DNA of 36,337 nt from Clostridia bacterium. Its GTDB lineage: Bacteria > Bacillota > Clostridia > Oscillospirales > CAG-272. Both the position numbers and the translations under genes were made by a program. This document shows positions 5,934-32,935 of the stretch, in pieces. The notes beneath the pieces are model-generated. The model made no database searches. It was not told the origin of the DNA and was given only the letters and a program-made list of their open reading frames with translations. Where the stretch lies: positions 1 through 36,337 of the forward strand of contig JAFSCG010000077.1 in the NCBI GenBank assembly GCA_017436885.1, read 5' to 3'. Positions within the stretch are counted from its first letter, which is position 1. Each line of letters begins with the position of its first letter.

Positions 5934-5936
5934 CAC

Positions 5937-16161: not shown

Positions 16162-16190
16162 ATAATATCACAGACTTTTCCGTAAGTCAA
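16162..16190 (-). promoter_or_regulatory. Sigma-A promoter of ylxM-ffh-rpsP-khpA
   Basis: Minus strand TTGACT-N17-TATTAT with extended TGn. Confidence 0.7.
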
Positions 16191-16223
16191 TAGCTTTTTC
16201 AAAAAATATGTACCGAATATCCC

Positions 16224-16252
16224 TTGATTTCGCGGGTTTTATACTGTACAAT
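16224..16252 (+). promoter_or_regulatory. Sigma-A-like promoter of the DUF1538-PII operon
   Basis: TTGATT-N17-TACAAT. Confidence 0.55.
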
Positions 16253-16314
16253 GTATTTAGCATTATTCTATTATTGTAGAGTATCTGCCGAGTATTTTTA
16301 ACCACGGAGCCGCC

Positions 16315-17841
16315 ATGCTGAAAAACTTGATTCCAAAGCTTAAGGAAGCGCTTATTTCCGTGCTTCCCGTATCGCTGATAGTTCTGGTACTGGGTCTGAC
16401 CCCTTTGACGGGACTGACGGTTAAGGAAACGGTAGTATTTGCCGTGTCCTCCATTTTTCTTATTGCGGGCATCGGACTTTTCAATCTGGGTGCCGACCTT
16501 GCAATGACACCTATCGGAGAGCATACGGGCTCCGGTCTTACAAAAACGAGAAAAATGAACGTCCTGCTTTCCGTTTGCTTTATTATGGGACTGCTTATCA
16601 CGGTTGCGGAGCCGGACCTTTCCGTTCTTGCAAATCAGGTAAACGCCGTAATAGATCCCACGGCTCTCATTTTCACCGTCGGTATCGGAGTTGGACTTTT
16701 CCTTGTTTGCGCCGTTGCAAAGATAGCATACCGCAAGAACCTTTCCGCACTTCTGATGTTCTTTTACATGGTTCTGTTTGCGTTCTGCGCATTGCTGATA
16801 GAAAACGGAAAAAGCGAATTTCTGCCCCTTTCCTTTGATTCGGGCGGAGTTACCACCGGCCCCATTACCGTGCCCTTCATTATGGCGCTCGGCGTTGGTA
16901 TAGCTGCCACCATGGGAGGAAGCAACTCGAGCGAAAACAGCTTTGGTCTTGTTGCTCTCTGCTCTATCGGTCCCATGCTTGCGGTGGCTGTGCTTTCCCT
17001 TTCCGCAGGCGGCGAGCTTACGTATAAGCTGCCCGATTACTCTATCGCCGACAACGTTATGGGCACCGTTCTTTCCACTCTGACACACACGGCGGCAGAG
17101 GTCATCCGCGCCCTTGGACTCATCGTCGTGTTCTTCCTTATCCTGCAGTTTGCGGTACTTAAGCTGCCCAAGACCAAGATAATTCAGATACTCGTTGGCG
17201 TGGTATACACCTTTCTCGGCCTCGTTATCTTCCTTACCGCGGTAAACGTGGGCTTTATGCCCATCGGCTTCCGCCTCGGGCAGGAGATGGCAAAAACGGA
17301 CAAAGTTATCCTCGTGCTCTTCGGTCTTGCCATCGGTGCGGTAACGGTCCTTGCCGAGCCCGCCGTACACGTGCTTAACAAGCAGGTAGAGGAGATAACC
17401 GGCGGTACCGTATCCAAGCGCTCCATGCTTATCGCACTTTCCCTTGGTGTGGGCGTTTCCATCGGGCTTTCCGTTATCCGAATAATCTTTGATTTTTCCA
17501 TACTCTATTATCTCGTGCCCGGATATCTGATAGCGCTGGGGCTCTCGCTCTTTGTACCCGGCATCTATACCGCCATCGCCTTCGACTCCGGCGGAGTTGC
17601 AAGCGGACCCCTTACCTCCAGCTTCGTGCTTCCCCTGGCTGTCGGCGTGTGCAGCGTGCTTCAGGGCGAATCTGCTGTGCTGCACCTTGCCTTCGGCGTT
17701 GTGGCAATGGTAGCAATGACCCCCCTTATCACCATTCAGGCCCTCGGCTTCCGTGCCATTATGGCGCGCAAGGTACGCGAGCGCATAGCAATGAAGCGTA
17801 TCCTTGACGCAGAGGACGAGCAGATCATCTATTTTTCCTAA
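16315..17841 (+). CDS. DUF1538 polytopic membrane protein (two tandem domains)
   Basis: Internally duplicated motifs AEPDLSVL / AEPAVHVL, FDSGGVTTGPITVPF / FDSGGVASGPLTSSF, FGLVAL / FGVVAM. Confidence 0.88.
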   Translation: MLKNLIPKLKEALISVLPVSLIVLVLGLTPLTGLTVKETVVFAVSSIFLIAGIGLFNLGADLAMTPIGEHTGSGLTKTRKMNVLLSVCFIMGLLITVAEPDLSVLANQVNAVIDPTALIFTVGIGVGLFLVCAVAKIAYRKNLSALLMFFYMVLFAFCALLIENGKSEFLPLSFDSGGVTTGPITVPFIMALGVGIAATMGGSNSSENSFGLVALCSIGPMLAVAVLSLSAGGELTYKLPDYSIADNVMGTVLSTLTHTAAEVIRALGLIVVFFLILQFAVLKLPKTKIIQILVGVVYTFLGLVIFLTAVNVGFMPIGFRLGQEMAKTDKVILVLFGLAIGAVTVLAEPAVHVLNKQVEEITGGTVSKRSMLIALSLGVGVSIGLSVIRIIFDFSILYYLVPGYLIALGLSLFVPGIYTAIAFDSGGVASGPLTSSFVLPLAVGVCSVLQGESAVLHLAFGVVAMVAMTPLITIQALGFRAIMARKVRERIAMKRILDAEDEQIIYFS

Positions 17842-17851
17842 GGAGGACGCC

Positions 17852-18283
17852 ATGCCCGAAACCATAAAAAAAGGCTCTGCCGCGTTCCGCGGACAAAGAA
17901 AGCGCGCAACGCGCCCGGTACATAAAATAACCGAAAATAAGCTTGAGATACTTATTACCATAGTAAACAGGACCAAAGCCGAGTTTTTCGTGGATCTCAT
18001 CCAGTCCTTTGACGTAAATATGCAGTTCATTGCACTCGGCGAAGGAACCGCAGACGCAAAAATGCTCAATCTGTTAGGTCTCGCAAGCTCCGAAAAGGCG
18101 GTTATATTCAGCATTATCCGCTCGGACAATGCTGCCAAAGCCCTTGCAAAGATCGAAAAGACCTTCCGCTCCGTCAAAAACGCAAAGGGCATCGCCTACA
18201 CGGTTCCGATGTCCTCGCTTATCGGAGTTTCCGTTTTCGGATTTTTAAGCAATAACCGCATGACCGTCAAGGAGGAAAGATAA
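17852..18283 (+). CDS. PII-like protein (degenerate) with basic N-terminal extension
   Basis: LITIVNR..GEGTA..LLGL..SEKAVI..KGIAYTVP. SD AAGGAGG before ATG 17852. Confidence 0.75.
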   Translation: MPETIKKGSAAFRGQRKRATRPVHKITENKLEILITIVNRTKAEFFVDLIQSFDVNMQFIALGEGTADAKMLNLLGLASSEKAVIFSIIRSDNAAKALAKIEKTFRSVKNAKGIAYTVPMSSLIGVSVFGFLSNNRMTVKEER

Positions 18284-18636
18284 TGCAAAACGAAAATTAC
18301 GAAATGATAATGTGCATAGTAAACGCAGGCTGCACCGATACGGTAATGGATGCGGCAAGAGCTGCAGGTGCAGGCGGCGGCACCGTCATACACGGCAGAG
18401 GCACCGCAAACAAGGAGGCCGAAAAGCTGTTCAAAATATCCGTCCAGCCCGAAAAGGATATGGTAATGCTTATCGTTCCCGCCCGCATCAAGGACAAGGT
18501 GCTCCACGCCATATACAAAAACGCAGGACTTGAGTCCGAGGGTCAGGGCATTGCCTTCTCCGTTCCCGTCAACAACGCCGTTGGCCTTTCCCAGCACGAG
18601 CCCGACGCTGTCAAAGAAGTGGAAAGCGAGCGATAA
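18283..18636 (+). CDS. PII-family protein
   Basis: IVNAG..VMDAARAAGAGGGTVIHGRGT..PEKDMV..GQGIAFSVPV..AVGL. Confidence 0.88.
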   Translation: MQNENYEMIMCIVNAGCTDTVMDAARAAGAGGGTVIHGRGTANKEAEKLFKISVQPEKDMVMLIVPARIKDKVLHAIYKNAGLESEGQGIAFSVPVNNAVGLSQHEPDAVKEVESER

Positions 18637-18701
18637 AGGCAGGCGAAGGCGCGTAGATTGCGGCCATCGGCGAGATACCGCTCCAATACGAATAATAACG
18701 C

Positions 18702-18747
18702 AAAATACTGTGCTTTACGGAATGCTCCGTCGGGCACAGTATTTTTT
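18702..18747 (+). terminator. Intrinsic terminator after the PII genes
   Basis: AAAATACTGTGC...GCACAGTATTTTTT with inner ACGGA/TCCGT stem. Confidence 0.75.
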
Positions 18748-18768
18748 ATCAATGCTGTAACAAAATTA

Positions 18769-18797
18769 TTGATTTTTCTATATAAATATTGTATAAT
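18769..18797 (+). promoter_or_regulatory. Sigma-A-like promoter of the CotH array
   Basis: TTGATT-N17-TATAAT in an AT-rich stretch, 46 nt upstream of ATG 18844. Confidence 0.68.
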
Positions 18798-18843
18798 TGC
18801 ATTATTATGGGTTTTTGTAACCTATCGTAACGGAGTAGTTACT

Positions 18844-21021
18844 ATGAAAAAGAGATATTTATCTTTTTTTGCTGTCTTACTTGCAGTTTCATCGTTGCTT
18901 GCGGGTTGTGATAACGGAGCAAACACAACGCTCACCGAACCGATAGAAACGGAAAGCCTCTTCCCCGCGTCAGATACGGAGGAGATACTTACCGCCGACA
19001 AGATCGTTTACCCCAAGGAAGAGCTGCCAAAGATATATATAACCACCGAAAACGGCTTTCAGGTGATAAGCAAAGAAAAATACACCTCCTGTGGCGTGCG
19101 CTTTGAGCTCAGCGACAGATTTGCCGAATTTGAAAACACCTATACGGACGATAACGGCGGACTTGCCGAGATACGCTGCCGCGGTAACGCCTCCTATAAC
19201 AACAGCGAGATGCGCGCGGTAAACAAGTTTTCCTACAAGCTCAAGCTGGAAACAAAGGCAAACGTACTCGGTCTTGGAGAAAGCAGGCATTGGTATCTTA
19301 TAAACAACTGGCGCGATATCAGCGCAATGAGGCACAAGCTTGCATACGACTTTGCCCTCTCCATCGGTCTTTCCTCCGTGGATTCCACCTGGGTGACCCT
19401 TTACTACAACGGCGAATACCGCGGACTTTACCTGCTTACGGAAAGCGTGCGAATTGCCGAGGACAGAGTTAATACCACGAACTGGGAGGAATTTGCAAGC
19501 GACGTTGCAAAGGCATACGCCGCAAACAACGGCTTTAGCCCCGAGGATACGAAGCTCCTTGAGGAAAGCATGGAAAGGAACCTGAAGTGGATCTCCAACC
19601 AAAGTCATACCGCAAACCTCTCCTCCGGAAGCACGGTTATAGACCTTACGGGATATTTTGACCCCGACTCATTGGACCTCACCTCGGGATATCTTGTTGA
19701 GTACTGCACGGGCTTCGACACAAACGGAACCAAGTGGAAAACGACTGCGGGTATCCCCGTCGTTATGGATAGTCCCTTCTACCTTGCCACCAACTCAAAA
19801 ATGTACCAATACGTGCACACGCTGGTTCAGGATTTCGAGGATGCGATCCTCTCCCCCACCTACCACAACGCAAAGGGAAAGCACTACTCCGAGTACGTTG
19901 ACGTGGATTCTCTTGTGGATTATTGGATAATATGGAATCTGTTCCGCAATACGGAGTTCGGAAGCCGCTCCCTGTATTACTACATCGACCACGGCAAGAT
20001 AATATTCAGCCCCGTGTGGGATTTTGACGCCACTCTCGGCAACATCATCACTCTCTCCGCGGCAAGCGGCGTGCACGACAAATGGGTGCATGATGCCAAA
20101 AGCACTTGGTTCACAAAGCTGTTCGGCGACCCGTATTTTACTGCAAAATGTCAGGAAAGATGGTTTTCCATGCGCGAGGCCGTGGACGAGCTTTACCGCT
20201 CCATCGACGTCTACGTCAACTACATCGAGGAGGAGAATCTACGTTGCGTTGACAGAAACGGCATAAGGACCTTCAACGTTAAAAATCCCTTGAACGGCGG
20301 CGTGAGCTTCACTCCCGAAGAGGACTACGAATACATGAAAACGTGGTATAAAAACCGCGTTGAATGGATAGACGAGCATTTTTCCGTAATCGACCCCAAC
20401 GTTGATGGCGGCGGCTACGTTCGCAGCGACGAGATATTCCCGAAAACGCTTATAAACGGAAGCGAGCCAACGCCCGACAGGCTTACGGTATTCGGCGCTC
20501 CGGCGGACTATATCATAAGCCCCGATACCACGGGCACGGTGGAGATAAGCGCAACCACCACCTACGGCTCCAGCACCACCATGGAGGCATTCCTTAACGG
20601 AACCGTAGTGCTTGGCAAGCAGCCCTTCAGACGGGGCGATACCGCAAAATACGTTATCGACGTCTCAAGCCTTGACATGACCGAGGGCGCGGTGAATATC
20701 ATCTACCTCTGCGCCTTCCGCTCCAACGGAACGGTGCGCGGCGTTTCTTCCGTCGTTATCAAGGTAACGTCCATGGAGAACCCCAAGGAAAACGAAAGGC
20801 TCGTGGATCTCAACGGCACTCTTACCAAGGTCGAGGCAGGAAGCAGCTTTACTCTGCCCGAAATAACCGAGGTGCGTGATGGCTACGTTGCCGAGGGCTG
20901 GACCACGGGAGACGATAAGGTCTACGCCGCAGGCGATACCGTTACCGTCGATGAAAACACGTTTATGTTCATACGTTGGAAGCGCACAGACACGTTTTCG
21001 CGCTTTAATATGGAAAGATGA
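18844..21021 (+). CDS. CotH kinase-family lipoprotein, copy 1 (C-terminal InlB B-repeat-like domain)
   Basis: True start MKKRYL (SD GGAG), lipobox LAGC. CotH motifs RGNAS, SYKLKL, WYLINNWRD..MRHKLAYD, LYYNGEYRGLYLLTE, GYLVE, DVDSLVDY, PVWDFD. C-terminal FTLP..RDGY..GWT..Y..G..V..W. Confidence 0.88.
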   Translation: MKKRYLSFFAVLLAVSSLLAGCDNGANTTLTEPIETESLFPASDTEEILTADKIVYPKEELPKIYITTENGFQVISKEKYTSCGVRFELSDRFAEFENTYTDDNGGLAEIRCRGNASYNNSEMRAVNKFSYKLKLETKANVLGLGESRHWYLINNWRDISAMRHKLAYDFALSIGLSSVDSTWVTLYYNGEYRGLYLLTESVRIAEDRVNTTNWEEFASDVAKAYAANNGFSPEDTKLLEESMERNLKWISNQSHTANLSSGSTVIDLTGYFDPDSLDLTSGYLVEYCTGFDTNGTKWKTTAGIPVVMDSPFYLATNSKMYQYVHTLVQDFEDAILSPTYHNAKGKHYSEYVDVDSLVDYWIIWNLFRNTEFGSRSLYYYIDHGKIIFSPVWDFDATLGNIITLSAASGVHDKWVHDAKSTWFTKLFGDPYFTAKCQERWFSMREAVDELYRSIDVYVNYIEEENLRCVDRNGIRTFNVKNPLNGGVSFTPEEDYEYMKTWYKNRVEWIDEHFSVIDPNVDGGGYVRSDEIFPKTLINGSEPTPDRLTVFGAPADYIISPDTTGTVEISATTTYGSSTTMEAFLNGTVVLGKQPFRRGDTAKYVIDVSSLDMTEGAVNIIYLCAFRSNGTVRGVSSVVIKVTSMENPKENERLVDLNGTLTKVEAGSSFTLPEITEVRDGYVAEGWTTGDDKVYAAGDTVTVDENTFMFIRWKRTDTFSRFNMER

Positions 21022-21034
21022 CCGCATAGCGGCA
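21010..21034 (+). repeat. 25-nt junction repeat, copy A (end of CotH 1 into spacer)
   Basis: ATGGAAAGATGACCGCATAGCGGCA; 24/25 identical to 23205-23229. Confidence 0.8.
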
Positions 21035-21044
21035 TGGTGATGTT

Positions 21045-23216
21045 ATGAAATTCAGAAAATGGATCACGTCAATAATATCGTGCCTACTCGCTGCCTGCTC
21101 CATTTTCTGCGGCTGTGCACCTGCGCCGATAGACGATCTCACCGTGCCCGAAAACACCGCACCCCTGTTCGAGGAGGCAAAAACTCCGGAAAACACAGAT
21201 ATTCTCGACGTGGAGATACCCGTCATTCATATTTCCACAGCGGGAAACAGACAGATAAACAGCAAGGATTATTACCTGAACTGCACGGTACGCTTTGAAC
21301 TGACCGACGCGTTTTCCGCCTACCCGAACACCTACACCGACGAAAACGGCGGTTTGGCAAAGATACGCTGCAGGGGCAACGCATCCTTCACAAACCCCGA
21401 GGTGCAAAAGACCAACAAGTATTCCTACAAGATAAAGCTGGATACCAAGGCAGACCTTTTCGGCTTTGGCGAAAGCAAGCATTGGTATCTTATCAACAAC
21501 TGGCGCGACGTCAGTCAGCTGCGCAACAAGCTTTCCTACGATCTTGCCGCAACCCTCGGCATATCCACGGTGGACTGCACATGGGTCAGCTTGTACTATA
21601 ACGGTGAATACCGAGGTCTTTACCTGCTGACGGAGAGCGTGCGCATAGACGAGGGGCGCGTGGAGACCACCAACTGGGAGGAGTTTGCCGAGGACGTGGC
21701 CGAGCTGTGCGGGAGGGACATGGGCTTTGACGAAAGAAACGTTACCGTTCTTGCCGACGATATGATACGAGATCTGGGCTGGATAAGCACGGGACGTTTT
21801 TCCGCCGATATCCCCGCAGGCAAATTCGAGCTTGATCTGACGAAGTATTTCGACCCCGATTCCCTCGATCTTACCTCGGGCTATCTTATGGAGCTGTGCA
21901 ACAGCTACGATTCCACGGGAACAAAATGGCGCACAGCGCATAACGTTCCCATAATGGCTGACAACCCCATGTATCTCGCAACCAATAAAGAGATGTACTC
22001 CTTCGTTTCGGGTCTTGTACGTGATTTTGAGGAGGCGCTGGCATCACCCACATTCCACAACTCCAAGGGGAAGCACTACTCCGAATACGTGGACGTGGAC
22101 TCCATGGTGGACTATTGGATGCTTTTCAACCTTGTATGCAACACGGAGTTCGGATACCGCTCCAATTATTTCTATATTGAAAACGGCAAGATCGTTTTCG
22201 GTCCCGCTTGGGATTTTGATCGCACCTTCGGCAACATCACAAATATTGCACAGGGAGCGGGCACATATAACACTTGGGTGCCCGACGTAACCAAAACGTG
22301 GTTCCGCAATCTGTTTACAGATCCGTGGTTCGTAAACAAATGCCAGCAACGCTGGTTCTCCATCCGAGAGACGGTGGATCAGCTGGTGGTGTCCATGGAC
22401 CTGTACCGCGAGTACATTGCGGAGGAAGCGGAAAGCTGCTTTGAGCGCAACGGCATACGCAAAGCAAACATAGGAAACAAAAAGGCAAACAACGGCACAA
22501 GCTTTACCCCAACGCAGGACTACGAATATATGCGCGAATGGCTTATAAAGCGCATTGCGTGGATAGACGAAAGCTTCTCGGATATTGCGCCGAACGTTGA
22601 CTTAAGCGGCTTTGAGAGAAGCGAAAAGGTAAATATACAGCTGACGCACGAAGGAAATACCCTTGAACGCGACAAGCTGACGATACGCGGACCGCGTGCC
22701 GACTATCTGCTGTCGCCCGACGCAAAGGGCACGCTGGAGCTGCGCACAACCACGTCTCACACCAACGCGGCTTATACCAACGTATATGCCAACAGTGCAG
22801 TGAGCCTCGGCAAGGAAACACTTACCCGCAACACAGCCGCAAAATACTCCATAGACCTTTCCCTTCTTGATATGCGCGAGGGAGCGGTAAACGTGCTGTA
22901 TATTCCCGTTTTCAGAAGCGACGGAACACGCAGAGCTCTTACGTCCGTAGTGATAAAGGTTACCTCCTTGGAGAGTCCTGCGGAGGACGAATGCGTCATA
23001 GACCTGAACGGCACTCTGCATATCGTTAAAAAGGACACGGAATTCACTCTGCCGAAGGTAGGCTATACACGCGAGGGCTTCAAGCTTGCGGGCTGGACCG
23101 ACCTTGACGGCAAAGTATACGGCGAAAACACCTCATTCACAGTTAAAGCCAACACCTATCTTTACCCCAAGTGGGAACGCACAGATCTGTTTGCAAAAAT
23201 TCTAATGGAAAGATGA
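21045..23216 (+). CDS. CotH kinase-family lipoprotein, copy 2
   Basis: Signal peptide with LAAC/FCGC; same CotH motifs (RGNAS, YNGEYRGLYLLTE, GPAWDFD) and C-terminal B-repeat-like domain. Confidence 0.88.
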   Translation: MKFRKWITSIISCLLAACSIFCGCAPAPIDDLTVPENTAPLFEEAKTPENTDILDVEIPVIHISTAGNRQINSKDYYLNCTVRFELTDAFSAYPNTYTDENGGLAKIRCRGNASFTNPEVQKTNKYSYKIKLDTKADLFGFGESKHWYLINNWRDVSQLRNKLSYDLAATLGISTVDCTWVSLYYNGEYRGLYLLTESVRIDEGRVETTNWEEFAEDVAELCGRDMGFDERNVTVLADDMIRDLGWISTGRFSADIPAGKFELDLTKYFDPDSLDLTSGYLMELCNSYDSTGTKWRTAHNVPIMADNPMYLATNKEMYSFVSGLVRDFEEALASPTFHNSKGKHYSEYVDVDSMVDYWMLFNLVCNTEFGYRSNYFYIENGKIVFGPAWDFDRTFGNITNIAQGAGTYNTWVPDVTKTWFRNLFTDPWFVNKCQQRWFSIRETVDQLVVSMDLYREYIAEEAESCFERNGIRKANIGNKKANNGTSFTPTQDYEYMREWLIKRIAWIDESFSDIAPNVDLSGFERSEKVNIQLTHEGNTLERDKLTIRGPRADYLLSPDAKGTLELRTTTSHTNAAYTNVYANSAVSLGKETLTRNTAAKYSIDLSLLDMREGAVNVLYIPVFRSDGTRRALTSVVIKVTSLESPAEDECVIDLNGTLHIVKKDTEFTLPKVGYTREGFKLAGWTDLDGKVYGENTSFTVKANTYLYPKWERTDLFAKILMER

Positions 23217-23229
23217 CCGCATTGCGGCA
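23205..23229 (+). repeat. 25-nt junction repeat, copy B (end of CotH 2 into spacer)
   Basis: ATGGAAAGATGACCGCATTGCGGCA. Confidence 0.8.
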
Positions 23230-23237
23230 AGACGAAT

Positions 23238-25415
23238 ATGAAAAACAAAAGGTTTTTATTATCCGCCATATCAGCTTTGTTAACAGCCGTATTTCTGCTT
23301 GCATCCTGCGCGCCCGAAGGTCCCGCGACCTTTGATACGCAGGCCAGCACCTCTGCCCTTTTTCCCGATGAAGCACCCGAAGCGGGGCTTGACAGCATCG
23401 TGTACGGGGAAACGAAGGTGCCCGTTATACATATCGACACGGACGACGGCCAGCAGATAGTGAACAAAACGACGTACAGCCGCTGCAATATTCGCTTCGA
23501 GCTGAACGACATCTTTTCCGAGTACGAGAATACCTATACCGACGAAAACGGCGGACGTGCAGACATTCGCTGCCGCGGAAACTCCTCCTTTACCGAAGCG
23601 GATATGCGCGCAAAGAACAAGTATTCGTACCGCATAAAGCTTGATACCGCCGCAGACCTTTTCGGTCTTGGGGAAAGCAAGCATTGGTATCTTATTGCCA
23701 ACTGGTTTGACGTTTCCGCACTCAGAAACAAGCTTGCATACGATTTTTCCGGTGCTCTCGGACTTACCTACGTTCAAAACACCTGGGTGGAGCTGTACTA
23801 TAACGGCGAATACCGCGGGCTCTACCTGCTTGTAGAAAGCATACGAATAGACGAGGGCCGCGTTGAAACCGTCAACTGGAAGGAATTTGCCGAGGATATC
23901 GGCAAGGCTTATTCCGCTGCAAACTCCCTCTCCCCCGAAGAGGAGCTGACCATCTGCACCGCCCTTGAAAAGAATCTTGCTTGGATAACTACGGGAAAAG
24001 CTGAATTTGCCATAGACGGAAAGAGCGTGACCCTCGACCTTTCTCCCTATTTCGATCCGGAGGAGATAGACATAACCTCGGGCTATCTTATCGAATACGA
24101 CGACCGCATGGAGGGTGTGCGTACTAAATGGAAGACCGCAAAGGGAGTGCCCGTTTCCATAGATAACCCCGAGACCCTGAACACCAACGGCACCATGTAC
24201 AAATACGTACACGAGCTGCTGCGCGATTTTGAGAGAGCCGCTTTCTCCGACACCTTCTACAACGATAAGGGAAAGCACTATTCCGAATATCTTGACGTGG
24301 ATTCCATGGTGGACTTCTGGCTGGTGTGGAACCTGTTCAACAACTGGGAGTTCGGCTGCCATTCGCTTTATTATTACATCGACGGTGGAAAGATACATTT
24401 CGGACCCTGCTGGGATTTCGATTTTTCCTCCGGCAATATCGCCACTCTGAGGGAAAAGACCGTGGGATACACCAACTGGACCACCGACAGAAACGACGCG
24501 TGGTTCGTGGAGCTTTTGGGCGACCCGTACTTTTCTTCTCTCTGTCAGGAGAGGTGGTTTGAGGTACGGGAGCTACTGGACGACCTTGTGCGCTCCGTGG
24601 ACATCTACCGTGATTACATGGGAGACGAGGCTGCCAAATGCTTTGAAAGAAACGGACACCGCAAAAACTGGTATCTCAAGGACGTAAACGAAGGTCTGAG
24701 CATGACCTTCGAGGAGGACTGCGAGCATCTGAAGGAATGGTTCCAAAACCGCATACAGTGGATGAACGAGATGCTTGCCGTGCCCGACCCCAATATCGAC
24801 GACTGCGGATACACCCGCAGCAGTAAGATACTGACAAATCTCACCATAGGCGGCACCACACCCGAGCATGAGGTAATATATGAGCGCGGTGTGTTTGCCG
24901 ACTACGTTATCACCCCCGATACAAAGGGCGAGGTGGTGCTGAAGATATCCACCACCCACACCTCCGCCAGAACTGCCGCAGTGTATCTCAACGGTACCAC
25001 CCTTATCGGAGAGGGCAAGCTTACGGACTCCACCTCCCTTACATTGAGATTTGATGCTTCCCTCCTTGACATGAGCGAAAACGCACTTAACGTGCTGTAC
25101 ATACCCGCGTTCAGAAGTGACGGCACCCTGCGCTCCATGACTTCCATTCTTATTCGTGTAAGTTCCGTCAACACCCGCGCAGGCAATGAGAGAGTTCTTA
25201 TTTGCGGAGATGAAATAATCGTTGCAAATAAGGGCGAAAGCGTTACGCTTCCCGCCATCACCGAGGTGCGCGACGGCTTTGTATACGCGGGCTGGACCAC
25301 AGGCGACGACAAGGTATACCACCCCGGCAAGAGCTTTGAGCTTCAAGACGACACACGCATGTTTATCAGATGGATAAGAACGGATATATTCTCCGCAATG
25401 CTTCTTGAAAGGTAA
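23238..25415 (+). CDS. CotH kinase-family lipoprotein, copy 3
   Basis: Lipobox LASC; RGNSS, WYLIANWFDVSALRNKLAYD, VELYYNGEYRGLYLLVE, GPCWDFD; C-terminal B-repeat-like domain. Confidence 0.88.
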   Translation: MKNKRFLLSAISALLTAVFLLASCAPEGPATFDTQASTSALFPDEAPEAGLDSIVYGETKVPVIHIDTDDGQQIVNKTTYSRCNIRFELNDIFSEYENTYTDENGGRADIRCRGNSSFTEADMRAKNKYSYRIKLDTAADLFGLGESKHWYLIANWFDVSALRNKLAYDFSGALGLTYVQNTWVELYYNGEYRGLYLLVESIRIDEGRVETVNWKEFAEDIGKAYSAANSLSPEEELTICTALEKNLAWITTGKAEFAIDGKSVTLDLSPYFDPEEIDITSGYLIEYDDRMEGVRTKWKTAKGVPVSIDNPETLNTNGTMYKYVHELLRDFERAAFSDTFYNDKGKHYSEYLDVDSMVDFWLVWNLFNNWEFGCHSLYYYIDGGKIHFGPCWDFDFSSGNIATLREKTVGYTNWTTDRNDAWFVELLGDPYFSSLCQERWFEVRELLDDLVRSVDIYRDYMGDEAAKCFERNGHRKNWYLKDVNEGLSMTFEEDCEHLKEWFQNRIQWMNEMLAVPDPNIDDCGYTRSSKILTNLTIGGTTPEHEVIYERGVFADYVITPDTKGEVVLKISTTHTSARTAAVYLNGTTLIGEGKLTDSTSLTLRFDASLLDMSENALNVLYIPAFRSDGTLRSMTSILIRVSSVNTRAGNERVLICGDEIIVANKGESVTLPAITEVRDGFVYAGWTTGDDKVYHPGKSFELQDDTRMFIRWIRTDIFSAMLLER

Positions 25416-25421
25416 TATTGC

Positions 25422-27620
25422 ATGGATAGGAACAAAAGGTCAAGCGGAATTGCCGCGGCATTACGATTATCGGCTGCCGCCCTTGCTTCCCTGCTGATGT
25501 TTTCCTCCTGCACCGCATACGTCGAGGAAGCCGTAACCGCCCCCGCGGCTACCGCATCCGTATTTCCCGAGGATGCCGAGCCGTCTGTCGGCATTGACGA
25601 TATCGAATACACGGAAAAGACCGTTCCCGTTATACATATCACCACTTCAAACGGAAAGCAGGTAACCAGCAAAACGGATTACAGCTCCTGCAACGTACGC
25701 TTTGAGCTGAACGGCATCTTTGCAGAGTACGAGAACACCTACACCGACGAAAACGGCGGCAACGCAGAAATTCGGTGCCGCGGAAACTCCTCGTATACAC
25801 GCAAGGAGATGCGAGCAAAAAACAAGTATTCCTACAAGCTGAGGCTTGAAACGAAGGCGGACCTTTTCGGACTCGGAGAGAACAGGCATTGGTATCTTAT
25901 CAACAACTGGTTCGACGTTTCCGCACTCAGAAACAAGCTTGCATACGATTTTTCGGGGGCTCTCGGTCTTCCCTATACGGGAAACACTTGGGTGGAGCTT
26001 TACTATAACGGCGAATATCGCGGGCTTTATCTGCTTACGGAAAGCATCCGCATTGACGAAGGGCGCGTGGAGACCACGAATTGGGAAGAGTTTGCCGAGG
26101 ACGTGGGAAAGGCATACGCAAGTGCAAACGCCCTTTCTCCCGATGAGGAGGAAACGCTCTGCACCACTCTGAAAAACAACCTTCGCTGGATAACGACCGG
26201 CAATACGGGTATAACGAAAGACGGCAAGCTGATCACGTACGATCTCTCCCCGTATTTCGATAAGGACTCATTGGACCTTACCTCCGGCTATCTTATAGAG
26301 CTCGACGGTCGACTTGACGGCGACCGCACCACCTGGAAAACAAGGCGCGGTGCTCCCCTTGCCGTAGACTCTCCCGCAAGGCTTAATACCAATTCAAAAA
26401 TGATGCTTTACGTTTACAGATTGGTACAGGACTTCGAGGATGCATTGTTCTCCCCCACCTTCCATAATTCAGACGGAAAGCATTACAGCGAATACCTCGA
26501 CGTAGACTCCCTCGTTGACTACTGGCTTGTATGGAATCTGTTTAATAATCAGGAATTCGGTTATCTTTCCATGTACTGCTATATAGACGGCGGAAAGATT
26601 CATTTCGGTCACTGCTGGGATTTCGACTACACCGCAGGCAACATAATTACACAGCCAAAAAAGTGGATAAGCAACGAAAGATGGCTTACCGACAGAGGCG
26701 TTGGTTGGTATAAGGAGATATTGGGCGACCCGTATTTTTCCGTGCTTTGCCAGGAGCGATGGTTTGAGCTAAGAGAGCTGACAGACGATCTGCTCCGTTC
26801 CCTTGACATCTATTACGGCTACATGGCAGACGAGGCCGTGCGATGCAATGAAAGAAACGGAGATAGACCCAACTGGTCCCAAACGGACGTGAATAACGGC
26901 CACAGCTACGATTTTCAAACCGATTACGAGGTTCTTAAGTCTTGGCTTACCGGGCGCATCAAGTGGCTTAACGATATGATGTCCCTGCCCGACGCAAATA
27001 TCGACAAATCCGGCAATACAAGAAGCGTGAAGCTGTTTACCTCCCTTACCATAAACGGCGAAACGCCCGATTTTGAGATAGTAGACGGGCGCGGCGTTTA
27101 CGCCGACTACGTTATCTCCCCCGATACTGCGGGAGAAGTAACCGTAACGCTCAGCACCACACACACCACGTCGGTATCCTGCTCCCTTTATCTGAACGGA
27201 ACGAAGCATATCGGCGACAGCCCGCTCAACACCAAGGATAAGGTGCATTTCACCTTCAACGTATCGGATATGGACCTTTCGGAAAACGCAATAAACGTTC
27301 TGTATATCCCCACCTTCCGCACGGACGGCACCCTCCGCTCCATGACGTCCATTCTTATACGCGTCAGCTCCGTCAACGCCCTCTCTCCAAAGGAATGTGC
27401 CGTTATCCTCGGAAATACGGTACATAAAGCAATGAAGGGCGAGGAGTTCACCCTCCCCGAAATAACCGAGGTGCGAGATGGCTTCCTTGCCGCAGGCTGG
27501 ACCGACGGCACGGACACGGTGCTTCCCGCAGGCTCGGTAATTACCCCCAACGGCACCTGCGTATACTACGTGCGTTGGATACGCACGGAAATATTCTCCG
27601 CGATGAAAATGTACAATTAA
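25422..27620 (+). CDS. CotH kinase-family lipoprotein, copy 4
   Basis: Lipobox-like FSSC; RGNSS, VELYYNGEYRGLYLLTE, GHCWDFD; C-terminal B-repeat-like domain. Confidence 0.88.
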   Translation: MDRNKRSSGIAAALRLSAAALASLLMFSSCTAYVEEAVTAPAATASVFPEDAEPSVGIDDIEYTEKTVPVIHITTSNGKQVTSKTDYSSCNVRFELNGIFAEYENTYTDENGGNAEIRCRGNSSYTRKEMRAKNKYSYKLRLETKADLFGLGENRHWYLINNWFDVSALRNKLAYDFSGALGLPYTGNTWVELYYNGEYRGLYLLTESIRIDEGRVETTNWEEFAEDVGKAYASANALSPDEEETLCTTLKNNLRWITTGNTGITKDGKLITYDLSPYFDKDSLDLTSGYLIELDGRLDGDRTTWKTRRGAPLAVDSPARLNTNSKMMLYVYRLVQDFEDALFSPTFHNSDGKHYSEYLDVDSLVDYWLVWNLFNNQEFGYLSMYCYIDGGKIHFGHCWDFDYTAGNIITQPKKWISNERWLTDRGVGWYKEILGDPYFSVLCQERWFELRELTDDLLRSLDIYYGYMADEAVRCNERNGDRPNWSQTDVNNGHSYDFQTDYEVLKSWLTGRIKWLNDMMSLPDANIDKSGNTRSVKLFTSLTINGETPDFEIVDGRGVYADYVISPDTAGEVTVTLSTTHTTSVSCSLYLNGTKHIGDSPLNTKDKVHFTFNVSDMDLSENAINVLYIPTFRTDGTLRSMTSILIRVSSVNALSPKECAVILGNTVHKAMKGEEFTLPEITEVRDGFLAAGWTDGTDTVLPAGSVITPNGTCVYYVRWIRTEIFSAMKMYN

Positions 27621-27641
27621 CTGTAAAGGTACGGTACAAGT

Positions 27642-29822
27642 ATGAAAAGTAAAATTTTACTTTCCGCAATTTCCGCATTGCTCGCATTTACTGCCCTGCT
27701 CTCGTCCTGCGGGACCGTTCCCGTTGACGAGGTAACTGTACCCACGGAAACAGAGCCCCTGTTCCCCGACGATACAACGGCAGATATCCCCGAGGATAAC
27801 CACATCGTATATCCCGAGGGCGAGCTTCCCAAGCTGTATATAAACACCAACGACGGCAAGCAGGTAACAAGCAAGGATATATACAGCGCCTGCAACGTCC
27901 GTCTTGAGATGAACGGCGTGTATGAGAACTATCAGAACACCTACACCGATCAGAACGGCGGCGGGGCGCTGATACGCTGCCGCGGAAACATGACCTATAA
28001 CATCGCGGACGTAAAAAAGACCAATTCCTATTCCTATAAGCTTAAGCTGGATGCAAAGGCCGACCTTTTCGGCTTTGGCTCAAGCAAGCATTGGTATCTT
28101 ATCAACTGCTGGCGCGACACAAGCTACCTGCGCCACAAGCTTGCCTACGACCTCTCCGCCTCCCTCGGCATCGAGTACACGGACTGCACTTGGGTTTCCG
28201 TTTACTATAACGACGAATACCGCGGTCTGTATCTGATGACGGAAAGCATCCGCATAGCCGAGGACAGAATAGAAATGGAGAACTGGGAGGAGTTTGCCGA
28301 GGACGTCGCAGATGCTTACGCAACCGACAATTCCCTTGACGCAGACGACGCGTTGGTCCTTTCCGAGCTGATGGAGCATAATCTCAGCTGGCTCTCCACC
28401 GGTTACATCACGGCAAATCTGCCATCGGGCAAGCGCATAATCGACTTGAGCGTGTATTTTGACCCGGAGGAGCTGGACCTTACCTCCGGATATCTGATAG
28501 AGATATGTAACGGAATGGACACCTCAGGCTCCAAATGGAAAACGAACGCAGGATTCTTTATCGTGCTTGACAGCCCCTTCTATCTGCACTCCAACTCGGA
28601 GATGTACAACTACGTTCGCACCCTCATTCAGGATTTTGAGGACGCCATAATGTCGCCCGATTTCCATAACGCCAAGGGCAAGCATTACAGCGAATATATC
28701 GACGTGGATTCCATGGTCGATTATTGGATGGTATGGAACTTCTTCGTCAATACGGAGTTTGGTGCCCGCTCCATGTACTTCCACATCAAGGACGGCAAAA
28801 TGATCTTCGGTCCCAACTGGGACTTTGACGGAACCTCCGGCAACATTATGTCCACCACCAAAAGCGGCGGCGCATATAACAAATGGGTGCCCGACAGATC
28901 GAAAACCTGGTTTTATAACGCAATGAAGGATCCGTGGTTTACCGCAAAATGTCAGGAAAGATGGTATTCTCTCAGCGAGCTTCTTGACGACTTCATGACC
29001 TCCATGGATATATACGCAAGATACATCAAGGATGGCGCGGCACAAAGCTACGAGCGCACGGGACCGCGAAAAGAGATAGTCCGTCAGCCCGACGTCAACA
29101 ACGGTCATAGCTTTAACCCTTGGGAGGATTACGAATATCTGCGCACTTGGTTTGAGAACCGCATTATCTGGCTTGACGAGCATTTCGCAGCGCTTGACCC
29201 GAATATTGACGGCGCAGGCTACACAAGAAGCGAAAAAATCAAGACCGCTCTGACTCTTGATTCCAATACTATCGAAAAAGACCGCTCGTCAGTTTACGGT
29301 TTGAATGCCGACTATATTATCTCCACAAGCGACAGTGGAGTTATCGAGATAAAGCTGACCACCACCCACTCTAACATCGGGCATTTTGAGGTATATCTTA
29401 ATGGCACCGAATTTCTCGGCAGAGTGGAAAACACCGCCAGCGGCGGCTCCCTTCTTGTGGACACCTCAAAGCTTGACATGAGCGACGGCGCACTTAACGT
29501 TTTCTACATTATGTGCTATAAGAACACGGGCGCGTACCGCTCCATGTCCTCCGTCCTTATACGCGTAAGAAGCCTCGGAAATCCCGAAGCAATGAAGTGC
29601 ATCGTTCAGCTTGGCAATGAAATAGCACACGTAGACAGATTTGCCGAATACGCTCTCCCCGAGATAACCGAGGAGCATAACGGCTTTATCGCCGAGGGCT
29701 GGACCGACGGCAAGAACGTCTACGCTCCCGGCACCACCATCGAGATAAAGAACGACGTTCACCTCTATATTAAATGGAAGCGCACTTATATCTTCTCGAT
29801 AATGGAGTTTTTCCCACAATAA
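27642..29822 (+). CDS. CotH kinase-family lipoprotein, copy 5
   Basis: Lipobox LSSC; RGNMT, YYNDEYRGLYLMTE, GPNWDFD; C-terminal B-repeat-like domain. Confidence 0.88.
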   Translation: MKSKILLSAISALLAFTALLSSCGTVPVDEVTVPTETEPLFPDDTTADIPEDNHIVYPEGELPKLYINTNDGKQVTSKDIYSACNVRLEMNGVYENYQNTYTDQNGGGALIRCRGNMTYNIADVKKTNSYSYKLKLDAKADLFGFGSSKHWYLINCWRDTSYLRHKLAYDLSASLGIEYTDCTWVSVYYNDEYRGLYLMTESIRIAEDRIEMENWEEFAEDVADAYATDNSLDADDALVLSELMEHNLSWLSTGYITANLPSGKRIIDLSVYFDPEELDLTSGYLIEICNGMDTSGSKWKTNAGFFIVLDSPFYLHSNSEMYNYVRTLIQDFEDAIMSPDFHNAKGKHYSEYIDVDSMVDYWMVWNFFVNTEFGARSMYFHIKDGKMIFGPNWDFDGTSGNIMSTTKSGGAYNKWVPDRSKTWFYNAMKDPWFTAKCQERWYSLSELLDDFMTSMDIYARYIKDGAAQSYERTGPRKEIVRQPDVNNGHSFNPWEDYEYLRTWFENRIIWLDEHFAALDPNIDGAGYTRSEKIKTALTLDSNTIEKDRSSVYGLNADYIISTSDSGVIEIKLTTTHSNIGHFEVYLNGTEFLGRVENTASGGSLLVDTSKLDMSDGALNVFYIMCYKNTGAYRSMSSVLIRVRSLGNPEAMKCIVQLGNEIAHVDRFAEYALPEITEEHNGFIAEGWTDGKNVYAPGTTIEIKNDVHLYIKWKRTYIFSIMEFFPQ

Positions 29823-29840
29823 GCCTTATATAGCATAAAT

Positions 29841-29886
29841 AAATAGCCATGGTTTGTGCCGCCGCACAAACCATGGCTATTGTTTT
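29841..29886. terminator. Bidirectional terminator between the CotH array and spoIIIAH
   Basis: Perfect 18-bp stem AATAGCCATGGTTTGTGC-CGCC-GCACAAACCATGGCTATT with A-rich and T-rich flanks, between convergent genes. Confidence 0.88.
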
Positions 29887-30467
29887 TACATAGCTTTTTC
29901 TATTATCTTTACGTTAACGGGCTCCGTTCCCGTCTGCTCGTACACGATCTCCTTTATCTGCGCCACCTCACCGGGGAGAAGACCGTCGGTCTTTACGATA
30001 ACGTTTACCGTATTACCCGAAATAACGGCAATGCAATCGGCAAAGCCCTTGGATCTGACAAGGGTTTCGATATTCGACTCTCTCTCAATGTCCTTTGCGA
30101 TAACGGAAATATCCTCAAGTGCCTGTGTTTTTGTGGTATCGAGAGCCTCGGCAGAGGCAACTACGGTGCGAAGCACCTCTATTGCCTCATCTCTTGCGCG
30201 CTGTCTGTCCAGAGCCGTGGATGCAAAATAATTATCCAATCCCTCAGCGGAGGAATTGCTTGCCGCCACGTCGTCTGCGGTGTAGTTATCCGCCATATTT
30301 GAAGTACCGTAGGGTACGTCCGAGGCAGGAGAACCGAAGAGCAGAAAATTAAGATAGACCACGGCACCGATGCCGAACATACATAATATAAGCACAAGAT
30401 TGCGCTTTCCTACCCTTTCGGTAAATTTTTTTGCACCCGACCACAGCTTCCCAAAAAATTTTTTCAT
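29886..30467 (-). CDS. spoIIIAH: Stage III sporulation protein AH
   Basis: KRNLVL..AVVYLN TM segment, YFASTALDRQRARDE, ESNIETLVRSKGFADC, EVAQIKEIV; last gene of the spoIIIA cluster. Start set at MKKFF (SD GAGG). Confidence 0.92.
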   Translation of the reverse strand: MKKFFGKLWSGAKKFTERVGKRNLVLILCMFGIGAVVYLNFLLFGSPASDVPYGTSNMADNYTADDVAASNSSAEGLDNYFASTALDRQRARDEAIEVLRTVVASAEALDTTKTQALEDISVIAKDIERESNIETLVRSKGFADCIAVISGNTVNVIVKTDGLLPGEVAQIKEIVYEQTGTEPVNVKIIEKAM

Positions 30468-30518
30468 ATAATATCCTCGCTTCCTTTGCCGTATTGCGGC
30501 ATTCATATTTTCCGATAC

Positions 30519-30547
30519 ATCATATTCATCGACTTCTGATTATATTC
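30519..30547 (-). promoter_or_regulatory. Putative sigma-E-type internal promoter for spoIIIAH
   Basis: Minus strand GAATA-N16-AATATGAT; same architecture as the motif upstream of spoIIIAA. Confidence 0.55.
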
Positions 30548-30937
30548 CTATTTGCCCGAAACGGATATCTGTGATGCGGTAATGCCCAGTGCCGCCGATA
30601 AAAGCTCTGTCAGTTCCTTTTCTATTATCGGAACGTTGCCGCCCTTACATACCACCGCAACGCCGCAAACTCTCGGATAATGGGTGGCGCTTATGTTTCC
30701 TCGCGAGGAATATTCATATTCAAACCCCGTGGAAAACGTAAGAGCAACGCTACACTCCGACACCCCGCCAACCGAAGAGCAAAGCAACACAAGCTTCTCC
30801 TCCAGCTCCGCCGCGTATTTTTCCTCTGCGCTGACTTCTCCCTCTGTCTTTGGCGTGCCTCTGCTACCCAAAAGCATCAGCGCAATGCCGATCGCCGCCG
30901 CAAAAAATAACAACAGCAGCTTCGTTTTATCCTTCAT
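30548..30937 (-). CDS. spoIIIAG: Stage III sporulation protein AG (short form)
   Basis: N-terminal TM, YAAELEEKL..SSVGGV..VALT, PRVCGVAVVCKGG, LSAALGI...ISV; position in operon. Confidence 0.85.
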   Translation of the reverse strand: MKDKTKLLLLFFAAAIGIALMLLGSRGTPKTEGEVSAEEKYAAELEEKLVLLCSSVGGVSECSVALTFSTGFEYEYSSRGNISATHYPRVCGVAVVCKGGNVPIIEKELTELLSAALGITASQISVSGK

Positions 30938-31386
30938 CAGTCCACAAGCACCTCCACCTCACACCCAAGCAGGCTCTCCAGCTCAGTTTCTGCCTCGTGC
31001 ACGCCCCTGACAGCGTCCGTTCCCCTAAGATCCACGGTAACACGGCACAGCACTATGGCGTTTATATCCACGTCGTCCACGGTAACGCTTATTTTTGCTT
31101 CCGTCATTTCATATTTTGCGTTCAGATACTCGGAAACGCTCCTGCCTATCTCCTTTGCGCTTTGCTCCACAAGCCACTCGGCAGAGGAAAAACCGTTGTT
31201 CTCGATCTCGGGCAGCTCCGCAAAAAGCTGTACGTCAATGCCCGACACGGCAGAAAACACCACCGCAAGCATAACGAGGGAGATAACGAAGGAAACGAAT
31301 TTACCCATGCCGCCGTTGGGGCTTAACACACCAAGCAGAGAACAAAGGAGAGACGCGCCGCAAATTATGTAGATCGCATTTTTCAT
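30937..31386 (-). CDS. spoIIIAF: Stage III sporulation protein AF (short form)
   Basis: Two N-terminal TMs with LSPNGGMGKFVSFV; synteny between AE and AG. Start MKNAI overlaps the AE stop (TGATG). Confidence 0.75.
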   Translation of the reverse strand: MKNAIYIICGASLLCSLLGVLSPNGGMGKFVSFVISLVMLAVVFSAVSGIDVQLFAELPEIENNGFSSAEWLVEQSAKEIGRSVSEYLNAKYEMTEAKISVTVDDVDINAIVLCRVTVDLRGTDAVRGVHEAETELESLLGCEVEVLVD

Positions 31387-32522
31387 CACGCCACCGCCGT
31401 TTTTACAAATACGGTAACCGCAAGCAGGAACAGCACCGAGGATGCCGCCATCAGGGCACAAATAAGTCCGCAGACCGTTGCGGCACCGTCAAGCAATCTT
31501 GCCTCCGCTTGCAGGGAGCAAAGCCGTGCCGCCGCCGCGGCAAGCTCGAATGCCGTGCGGTAAAAAAGAGCAGAGATAAGGGGTGGCAGCAGCATAAGCA
31601 TCAGCACCGCACAGCTTGCCCACCCAACACCCGCTTTTATAACGGAAAGTCCCCCCGCAACCGTACGTAACGCCTCTCCCACCGCGCCGCCCACCACGGG
31701 AATAAAGCTGCCCGCCGCAAACCGCACCGTCCTCATGGCAACGCTGTCCCCTGCGGCGGCAATATGATTTCCGAAGGTGTACACCGCTGAATTTATCATC
31801 ATAAAAAACGCAATAGCGGTGGTAAAAAAGTCCTTCATTGCCTTCACTATGCCCGACATATCCATGGTACAAACAGACGCCGTAAGTATCACCGCAAGTA
31901 TGGTCCTTGCAAGGGGCAGGAGAAGATGCAGAAAAACGTTTTCTATAAGGGAGGTAAGCAAATACACGCCCGAGCTTGCATAAGCGGCGCACGCAACGTT
32001 GCCGCCCGCGGCATAAAGAGAGGTAAACAAGGGCAGAAGCCCAAGAACGAAGGCGTTTATCTCCTCTATCAGCGCCGCACCCGAATTAACGACTTTCTCC
32101 AAGGGGAAAAGCACGGCAACGCAAAAGCAAAGGGACGAGCAGAGGGTAAATGCCGAGGCAACGCCACCGCTTCTGACAGCCGCGGAAAGAGTCTTGAACA
32201 CCGCCGCCGCAACCACGAGAAAGATCAGGGAAAAGAACACCTGCAAGGGACCCGTTATCTCGTTTTTAACCGTTTTTATCAGCTCGGAGAATATAAAACG
32301 CCCGTCAAGCCCGCCTTTGCCGCCGTTTATTACCGTGTCTTTCGCCATATCCGCAACGCCGCTCATGCTCTCGGGCAATGCTTTTTCAAGCAGCTCTGCC
32401 GCCTCGCCCGTTACGTTATCCTGCCGCGGCTCATAGGTATAAGTACGTTCGGCGGCGGCAACGGGTATTGCCAAAGCAAGGGAGATATGCAGAAAAAGCA
32501 GAATTACAATTACTTTTTTCAT
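31386..32522 (-). CDS. spoIIIAE: Stage III sporulation protein AE
   Basis: Polytopic membrane protein; LLPLFTSLYAAGG, DSVAMRTVRFAAGSFIPVVGGAVGEA..IKAGVG. Confidence 0.92.
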   Translation of the reverse strand: MKKVIVILLFLHISLALAIPVAAAERTYTYEPRQDNVTGEAAELLEKALPESMSGVADMAKDTVINGGKGGLDGRFIFSELIKTVKNEITGPLQVFFSLIFLVVAAAVFKTLSAAVRSGGVASAFTLCSSLCFCVAVLFPLEKVVNSGAALIEEINAFVLGLLPLFTSLYAAGGNVACAAYASSGVYLLTSLIENVFLHLLLPLARTILAVILTASVCTMDMSGIVKAMKDFFTTAIAFFMMINSAVYTFGNHIAAAGDSVAMRTVRFAAGSFIPVVGGAVGEALRTVAGGLSVIKAGVGWASCAVLMLMLLPPLISALFYRTAFELAAAAARLCSLQAEARLLDGAATVCGLICALMAASSVLFLLAVTVFVKTAVA

Positions 32523-32928: not shown

Positions 32929-32935
32929 TCTAACC

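Follow-up and report, generated by a model that had tools for sequence, protein, structure and literature searches.

A tandem array of five CotH-family lipoproteins with a variant catalytic loop in a Clostridia genome: candidate surface phosphotransferases

The only proven role of CotH lies in the spore coat of Bacillus. There, according to PMC7821199, a protein of about 360 aa without a signal peptide is produced in the mother cell from a sigma-K promoter and acts on CotB and CotG. The present work deals with a tandem array of five CotH-family genes (18844–29822) found in contig JAFSCG010000077.1 of a Clostridia bacterium. The whole stretch analyzed, 36,337 nucleotides, is called the window; positions are counted from its first letter and refer to the + strand unless stated. 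The array could represent surface phosphotransferases of vegetative cells, not coat kinases, which would use a variant catalytic loop, act on distinct extracytoplasmic acceptors and take phosphate from polyphosphate or ATP; a probability of roughly 0.45 is given to this reading. The array is a new variant within the known, functionally obscure CotH family, and a literature search found no description of lipoprotein CotH arrays.

The array proteins share with the spore-coat CotH of Bacillus (B. subtilis; B. cereus 5JD9/5JDA) the Pfam family, the atypical kinase-like fold, the RG(N/A) loop, the Lys/Arg/Asn/Glu core and the WDxD metal site. They differ from it in being lipoproteins of 723–732 aa, in two extra C-terminal domains, in an insert of ~90 aa within the kinase fold, in a housekeeping-type promoter and in a Glu/Ser catalytic loop.

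CotH is also encoded in VTC–DUF4956–CotH operons (S. intermedius SIR_1592–1594; C. perfringens NELoc-2), in which VTC stands for the polyphosphate polymerase. These operons resemble the array in that CotH is secreted or membrane-anchored outside the spore context and in that the genomes possess VTC and DUF4956. They differ in having a single CotH in the operon, with N-x-D and WDxN, whereas here five tandem copies with N-x-E...S and WDxD lie far from VTC. Secreted CotH with polyphosphate polymerase and DUF4956 adjoins Gram-positive Pel loci, as stated in PMC7112168. In S. intermedius, mutation of the gene for a secreted CotH homologue altered Pel levels and lowered aggregation (PMC12345266), and NELoc-2 of C. 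perfringens is a further Pel locus with such accessory genes (PMC11677781). The literature search yielded no described function for VTC–DUF4956–CotH operons and, among the titles and abstracts returned, no functional study of DUF4956.

The Mucorales invasins CotH2/3/7 represent a multigene family whose extracellular products contain CotH domains, some of them lipid-anchored by glycosylphosphatidylinositol (GPI), as described in PMC9973265. Unlike the array proteins, they are eukaryotic, are dispersed in the genome and serve as ligands of host receptors; the GRP78-binding motif with QTNDGAY, taken from the same source, occurs in none of the five array proteins. Cellulosomal CotH–dockerin proteins of anaerobic bacteria and fungi also bring extracellular CotH domains to fibre-degrading gut microbes (PMC12484212), but the array proteins carry no dockerin, are lipid-anchored and are encoded in tandem. 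Fam20C-type secretory-pathway kinases, which act outside the cytosol, have a kinase-like fold that is distantly related (PMC7821199). No sequence-level match to Fam20C was found, searches of the PDB with sequence and profile having listed only 5JD9/5JDA. Fam20C-type kinases are eukaryotic Golgi enzymes whose ATP is supplied by transporters.

The five open reading frames (ORFs) of the array are intact and arranged head to tail: gene 1 (orthogroup A; 18844–21021, 725 aa), gene 2 (21045–23216, 723 aa), gene 3 (orthogroup B; 23238–25415, 725 aa), gene 4 (a second copy of orthogroup B; 25422–27620, 732 aa) and gene 5 (orthogroup C; 27642–29822, 726 aa). The intergenic spacers are, in order, 23, 21, 6 and 21 nt. 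The start of gene 1 was taken to be the ATG downstream of GGAG (18832–18835); the mechanical ORF opens earlier, with TTG at 18658. Genes 2–5 encode proteins 52, 49, 49 and 50% identical to that of gene 1, and paralogues and orthologues of the array proteins are 35–50% diverged at the protein level, a distance at which synonymous sites would be saturated.

Assignment to the CotH family is firm for all five proteins, which match Pfam CotH (PF08757) with 100.6–122.2 bits against a cut-off of 23.8 (E from 1.6e-28 to 4.2e-35); none of the five matches an NCBIfam family. A PDB search with the single sequence gave only a weak match to 5JD9 (E 4.1e-4), and a profile of 50 relatives matched the same structure with E 5.9e-12. 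An AlphaFold2 model of the gene 1 protein, built on these 50 relatives, reached a mean predicted local distance difference test score (pLDDT) of 90.8 and a predicted template modelling score (pTM) of 0.87. Residues 59–519 of the model correspond to the CotH fold: compared with B. cereus CotH (5JDA), they gave a Foldseek E of 3.2e-12 and a VIA-align Z of 29.7 (root-mean-square deviation (rmsd) 2.9, 329 of 359 residues).

The domain order in the gene 1 protein is as follows: signal peptide with lipobox (residues 1–22), acidic linker (23–58), CotH fold (59–519), Ig/FN3-like domain (528–645) and B-repeat-like domain (~650–716). In all five N-termini, a positively charged n-region is followed by a hydrophobic h-region and by a lipobox whose last residue is Cys. 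The lipoboxes, read from the sequence, are LAGC in gene 1, LAAC or FCGC in gene 2, LASC in gene 3, FSSC in gene 4 and LSSC in gene 5. The window genome encodes Lgt (228.6 bits) and LspA (137.4 bits). The lipobox pattern is present in 42 of the 63 closest relatives, and 12 more show ...P[GAS]C. The array proteins are accordingly predicted to be lipid-anchored and, because of this anchoring, extracytoplasmic. The linker that follows is acidic (7–11 D+E versus 0–2 K+R per 40 residues), contains the invariant residues T36 and F40 and carries (L/V)F(P/E); its disorder is predicted by a pLDDT below 50 at residues 22–45 of the gene 1 model. The motif LF[PEDS] was considered as a family-defining mark of the linker and rejected, since no more than 16 of the 63 closest relatives carry it.

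The middle domain is an Ig/FN3-like sandwich (Z ~8) of a generic kind, since the matched modules are common in carbohydrate-active enzymes and adhesins. The last 86 residues, modelled separately (pLDDT 78.1), had the InlB B-repeat 2y5p_A as the top match of 48,161 chains, with a Z of 7.3, which is below 8 and not decisive alone (rmsd 2.0, 65 of 72 residues, 26% identity). This fold match agrees with Flg_new (PF09479) scores below the cut-off, 16.8 and 18.5 bits against 27, seen in two of the five proteins only. Past the B-repeat-like domain lies a conserved tail, W-(K/I/E)-R-T-(D/E/Y)-(I/L/T)-F-(S/A)-x-(M/F/I), which occupies 20989–21018 in gene 1 and the equivalent ends of genes 2–5, was defined by alignment and is recognizable in all 18 array proteins aligned. 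It may serve in packing or sorting.

Most of this architecture had been anticipated in a sequence-only reading of the DNA. Its five intact paralogues of 723–732 aa with spacers of 6–23 nt are borne out by the ORF coordinates, while the position it gave as the array boundary, 18769, is that of the −35 hexamer, where no gene starts. The signal peptide with lipobox on each protein agrees with the N-termini and with the presence of Lgt and LspA, and the acidic linker with a shared motif is upheld by the residue counts and the alignment. The proposed CotH domain passed the profile search in all five proteins and superposes on 5JDA; the beta-rich middle domain proved to be Ig/FN3-like in the model. 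The B-repeat-like C-terminus is suggested by the fold comparison, with InlB as the top match at a Z below 8, and the Flg_new profile stays below its cut-off.

The catalytic loop of gene 1, N369-T-E371-F-G-S-R-S376 (19948–19971), and its metal-binding motif, W392-D393-F-D395 (20017–20028), which is equivalent to B. subtilis D251, were located by profile alignment to 5JD9, column counts and alignment with spore-type CotH. The 5JD9 profile alignment of the 50 relatives places the spore loop N-F-D-G-F-V-H-N opposite N369-T-E371-F-G-S-R-S376, with W-D-Y-D opposite W392-D393-F-D395. The spore-type CotH of two Bacillus-like genomes (L020, L022) aligns likewise, with a spacing of 23 residues, as between D228 and D251 of B. 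subtilis. Both of these residues matter for function, as D228Q and D251A each inactivate B. subtilis CotH (PMC7821199).

The column of the catalytic Asp is always acidic in the 50 aligned relatives, with E in 31 and D in 19. Invariant in all 50 are R113, G114, W150, R163, N189, G194, Y196, G282, E286, P311, S376, W392, D393 and D395. A pattern search among the 150 nearest representatives at 50% identity revealed E/S/DxD in at least 59 and D/S/DxD in 55, with no match in six; the remaining representatives are other residue combinations or failures of the pattern. The Glu form, in which the exchange of Asp is a conservative one, is therefore predicted to be a large conserved subfamily of secreted CotH rather than the decay of one lineage, since at least 59 of these 150 representatives carry E/S/DxD. 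Among the five paralogues, the most conserved region is the nucleotide-binding N-lobe (identity 0.65), and the two C-terminal domains are the lowest (0.43 and 0.40). We read this pattern as a probable active site under selection combined with diverging accessory modules; catalysis itself is a prediction.

A homologue search gave 229 matches at E ≤ 0.001 among 7,997 candidates scored. The names listed for the matches are only "CotH kinase family protein" or "hypothetical", and the sources are metagenome-assembled genomes of uncultured Clostridia, Oscillospiraceae and "Ruminococcaceae". The clade is narrow: it is covered by a single representative at 50% clustering, identity to the next cluster being 39%. 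A search through 1.84 billion representative proteins gave 9,627 related clusters at E ≤ 0.001, yet the spore-coat kinase is the only form of CotH that is understood. Judged by lengths and matched ranges, most of the 150 nearest clusters are large multi-domain proteins, much longer than the spore type of ~360 aa.

Tandem arrays recur in the same genus, with three copies in G002 and G007 and at least four on one contig in G004, which has others elsewhere; more divergent arrays contain four copies (G006) or two (G001, G003). In a maximum-likelihood tree of 22 proteins, with support expressed as the Shimodaira–Hasegawa-like approximate likelihood ratio test (SH-aLRT), three orthogroups were resolved: A (the first gene, 98), B (the middle genes, 99) and C (the last gene, 100). 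The order A-B-C is identical in the window and in two related loci (L011, L012), and a third (L013) reads A-B-B before a fourth copy is cut by the contig end. Since the three orthogroups keep the same order across related loci, the ancestral unit is reconstructed from the sequences as an A-B-C triad, which was probably expanded to five in the window genome: by the tree, gene 2 is a long-branch sister of A present as an extra copy, and genes 3 and 4 are a duplicated B. Seventeen positions are fixed within each orthogroup and differ between orthogroups; of these, 16 fall within the CotH fold or its insert.

A change in copy number can be followed between close strains. One contig of run X4, 17.9 kb long and with about 97% identity to the window, lacks the segment 25160–27366 and joins 25160 to 27366 with the loss of 2205 nt, or 735 codons, in frame. 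The junction fuses residues 1–641 of gene 3 to gene 4 from residue 649, so that a chimera and a four-gene array result; around it, 82 of 120 nt are identical in a locally conserved stretch. Unequal recombination thus appears to change the array copy number between strains.

The array is predicted to be an independent transcription unit with a housekeeping-type promoter, because the promoter hexamers are conserved and a bidirectional terminator precedes the spoIIIA operon. The promoter, of the sigma-A/sigma-70 type, is TTGATT-17-TATAAT (18769–18797, + strand; 10 of 12 consensus matches). The scan that detected it is not significant by itself, 8 promoter-like sites having been found against 12.6 ± 3.0 in shuffles. 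Both hexamers are nevertheless invariant in all four species aligned upstream of the first array gene, with diverged flanks, even where a GH43 gene replaces the P-II-like gene upstream. Sporulation sigma factors use CATA-type −10 motifs, and none was seen by eye in 18640–18843. The terminator, intrinsic and bidirectional, has an 18-bp stem with 8 GC pairs and is located between gene 5 and the convergent spoIIIAH (29842–29881). This arrangement of promoter and terminator fits, as far as sequence features can indicate, vegetative rather than coat-kinase biology. Two RNA libraries that belong to a single study (X11, X20) yielded contigs over parts of gene 1, genes 3/4 and gene 5; ffh and spoIIIA appear at a similar low depth, and DNA carry-over is possible, so that these contigs speak neither for transcription nor for a particular timing.

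Several further points of the sequence-only reading can be followed through these data. The single sigma-A-like promoter corresponds to hexamers invariant in four species, and the single terminator to the 18-bp stem. The long divergence of the copies is reflected in three orthogroups in fixed order, and the recurrence of the array with a variable number of genes, which it proposed to check, was observed, with 2–5 copies among relatives and four versus five in close strains. The suggestion of outward-facing proteins under vegetative control gains from the lipoprotein anchoring and the conserved housekeeping-type promoter, the timing being supported by the promoter sequence only.

Upstream of the array (all on the + strand) lie a DUF1538 gene (16315–17841), a small gene (17804–18283) with only a weak, sub-threshold PTS-HPr match, and a gene with a P-II match (18283–18636). 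Downstream of the P-II-like gene, a short hairpin with a T-run (18723–18746, + strand; stem 18723–18736, tail CAGTATTTTT) is likely the end of the DUF1538/P-II transcription unit. A hairpin with a T-run stands at the same position in L011, L012 and L013, and the promoter of each species has its own hairpin before it. Minus-strand ORFs at 16168–18192 (674 aa) and 18196–18597 (133 aa) were considered as partner genes and rejected as spurious, having no Pfam match and being antisense to the DUF1538 and P-II-like genes. On the other side, the spoIIIA operon (29886–34287, − strand; AH, an unassigned 129-aa ORF, AF, AE, AB and AA by Pfam) is convergent with the array. The layout ffh...array...spoIIIA is found in L011 as well.

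ATP is scarce outside the cell. For this reason, and because the literature places secreted CotH beside the polyphosphate polymerase, polyphosphate genes were examined. In an even sample of 301 Bacillota genomes, VTC was present in 38 of 45 CotH-positive genomes versus 10 of 256 CotH-negative ones. In 31 of the 38 co-positive genomes, CotH and VTC lie within ~2.5 kb of each other as VTC–DUF4956–CotH operons; four of the seven CotH-only genomes carry the spore type of ~360–370 aa. Among 41 relatives of the window genome, VTC occurred in 23 of 25 CotH-positive versus 8 of 16 CotH-negative genomes, the two CotH-positive genomes that lack VTC being 72% and 82% complete. In the named control genomes, VTC with DUF4956 was found exactly in B. 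thetaiotaomicron, C. glutamicum and M. acetivorans, which are all the CotH-positive controls except B. subtilis. The sequence-only reading does not mention this association of non-spore CotH genes with VTC and DUF4956 across genomes.

A single VTC gene and a single DUF4956 gene occur in the window genome, in the same operon on contig C20, and the array lies on contig C62. The C20 operon (L018:2263–5361, − strand) ends the series VTC–DUF4956 with a gene for a Cthe_2159-type lipoprotein of 589 aa (beta-helix, carbohydrate-binding type), where VTC–DUF4956–CotH operons hold CotH; a GH127 gene adjoins it. The operon is conserved in G007 (L039), with a lipoprotein 58% identical. The tie between the VTC genes and the window array is thus indirect. 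Canonical VTC–DUF4956–CotH operons were found at L023 (G208:C1) and L024 (G279:C11), with two-component regulator genes before the operon and CotH of 574–611 aa provided with a C-terminal hydrophobic anchor. The CotH of these two loci shows N-F-D...H-N and WD(F/Y)N, a third active-site flavour.

Gene neighbourhoods were also considered with respect to the acceptor. A GH43 lipoprotein gene is situated directly upstream of the array in three of five related loci (L011, L012, L013). BspA-type leucine-rich repeat (LRR) plus DUF4185 proteins of 1300–1570 aa follow the divergent arrays L025 (G006:C41), L026 (G003:C19) and L027 (G001:C76), which contain 2–4 CotH copies about 33% identical to the window proteins; the G006 array stands beside cohesin and dockerin proteins. 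GH89, GH125, GH2 and a GtaA-like protein each adjoin CotH at single loci. Together with the Pel literature, these neighbours weakly hint at a glycan or envelope acceptor. From the rhamnose-utilization cluster with GH78 and GH123 described below, the window organism is predicted to be a glycan degrader.

Some observations were made alongside. The cluster just mentioned occupies 2–8624 of the window and comprises a GH78 alpha-L-rhamnosidase, class II aldolase, RhaA isomerase, FGGY kinase, a divergent AraC regulator and a GH123 glycosidase. In the X4 contig, an additional 1504 letters separate 18619 from 18648, at the position of GH43 in relatives; that they encode GH43 would be only a guess. A sixth CotH lipoprotein of the window genome is encoded on contig C44 (L037:7648–9909, + strand, the same as L001:397–2658). 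It has the lipobox ICGC, an N-terminal extension of ~330 aa before the CotH domain and the N-x-E...S...WDLD variant as in the array, and its gene is convergent with one of the GtaA-like six-hairpin glycosidase type.

Surface phosphotransfer by the array could then proceed as follows. The five genes would be co-transcribed from the housekeeping-type promoter, and their products would be anchored by lipid on the outer face of the cytoplasmic membrane of a host that is probably a monoderm spore-forming gut member of the Clostridia. Each protein would expose a compact CotH atypical kinase-like fold, followed by the Ig/FN3-like spacer and the InlB-B-repeat-like module. An inherited triad A-B-C of diverged paralogues would have been expanded to five, its copy number being altered by unequal recombination. 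Phosphotransfer could be performed by the variant loop N-x-E-x4-S, in place of N-x-D-x4-N, with the intact WDxD metal site, and each paralogue may serve a different extracytoplasmic acceptor, more likely a glycan or cell-envelope polymer than a coat protein. Polyphosphate made and exported by VTC–DUF4956 would be the most likely donor, favoured because ATP is scarce outside the cell; extracellular ATP is the alternative. A more specific version, considered quite doubtful, is that the proteins are ATP-independent ecto-phosphotransferases supplied from polyphosphate that VTC–DUF4956 makes and threads across the membrane, with A, B and C each modifying a different glycan or envelope polymer and the Glu/Ser loop being an adaptation to the donor.

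A number of facts weigh against surface phosphotransfer. In all five proteins, Glu takes the place of the catalytic Asp of spore CotH (B. subtilis D228) and Ser that of the loop Asn, and the correspondence of residues to spore CotH is derived from sequence alignments, not from residue-level superposition. No VTC gene adjoins the array, and in this genus array and VTC are always on different contigs; the counts of CotH–VTC co-occurrence ignore shared ancestry. The RNA-library contigs cover the array and spoIIIA alike, so that vegetative timing draws on the promoter alone. Many other CotH loci have housekeeping neighbours only, and glycoside-hydrolase neighbours were counted without a background rate in genomes rich in them.

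Other explanations of the array must be set against these. According to PMC9973265, Mucorales have 15–17 CotH genes, some GPI-anchored, whose products act as GRP78 or integrin ligands. The array proteins could similarly be non-catalytic surface binders or adhesins in which the CotH fold is kept as a ligand scaffold for glycans, host or plant polymers or cells, the five copies providing different specificities; this alternative appears rather unlikely. The Glu and Ser substitutions common to all five proteins speak in its favour, as do the Ig-like and B-repeat C-terminal modules, which are adhesin-typical and the most variable parts. Scarcity of extracellular ATP points the same way. Yet all 50 relatives keep WDxD, the RGN loop and further core residues unchanged, the residue at the substituted position is acidic throughout and the N-lobe is the best conserved part, whereas the loss of several catalytic residues is usual in pseudoenzymes. 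In addition, none of the five proteins contains the GRP78-binding motif of Mucorales. Still less probable, and compatible with either catalysis or binding, is a hetero-oligomeric surface complex in which the A-B-C triad forms one machine and the extra copies are exchangeable subunits. The common order of the three orthogroups in the window, L011 and L012, with A-B-B before the contig end in L013, the tight spacing and predicted co-transcription of the genes, and the 17 group-specific fixed positions, 16 of which fall in the CotH fold and insert, are all consistent with such a machine. A copy number of 2–5 in relatives and 4–5 in close strains would be unusual for an obligate complex, however, and divergent arrays of the same genus have two or four copies.

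A function in the spore envelope is very improbable. In this case, sporulating cells would make the proteins and anchor them in the membrane of the forespore or mother cell, on the side of the cortex, where they would phosphorylate components of coat or cortex. In its favour, lipoproteins occur among the proteins of germination and sporulation. The spoIIIA operon is directly downstream in the window and, within the ffh...array...spoIIIA layout, in L011, and the spore coat is the site of the only proven CotH role (PMC7821199). Against this stand the convergent orientation of spoIIIA, set apart by the bidirectional terminator, the conserved TTGATT-17-TATAAT promoter with no CATA-type −10 seen by eye in 18640–18843, and the arrays L012, L014 and L015, which have no sporulation neighbours. 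Secreted CotH genes occur, moreover, in non-spore-formers, both according to PMC7112168 and in the control genomes.

The locus offers a clean test case for the family: it combines five diverged lipid-anchored copies, an intact metal site, a conserved Glu-for-Asp substitution, a fixed A-B-C order and polyphosphate genes in the same genome. If the proteins are inert binders, they would be bacterial counterparts of the fungal CotH adhesins. If they transfer phosphate from polyphosphate or ATP to a glycan or envelope polymer, this would be a new extracellular modification system in gut anaerobes. Polyphosphate-fed phosphotransfer in particular, if true, would provide a general role both for the thousands of CotH proteins that bacteria secrete and for their VTC genes.

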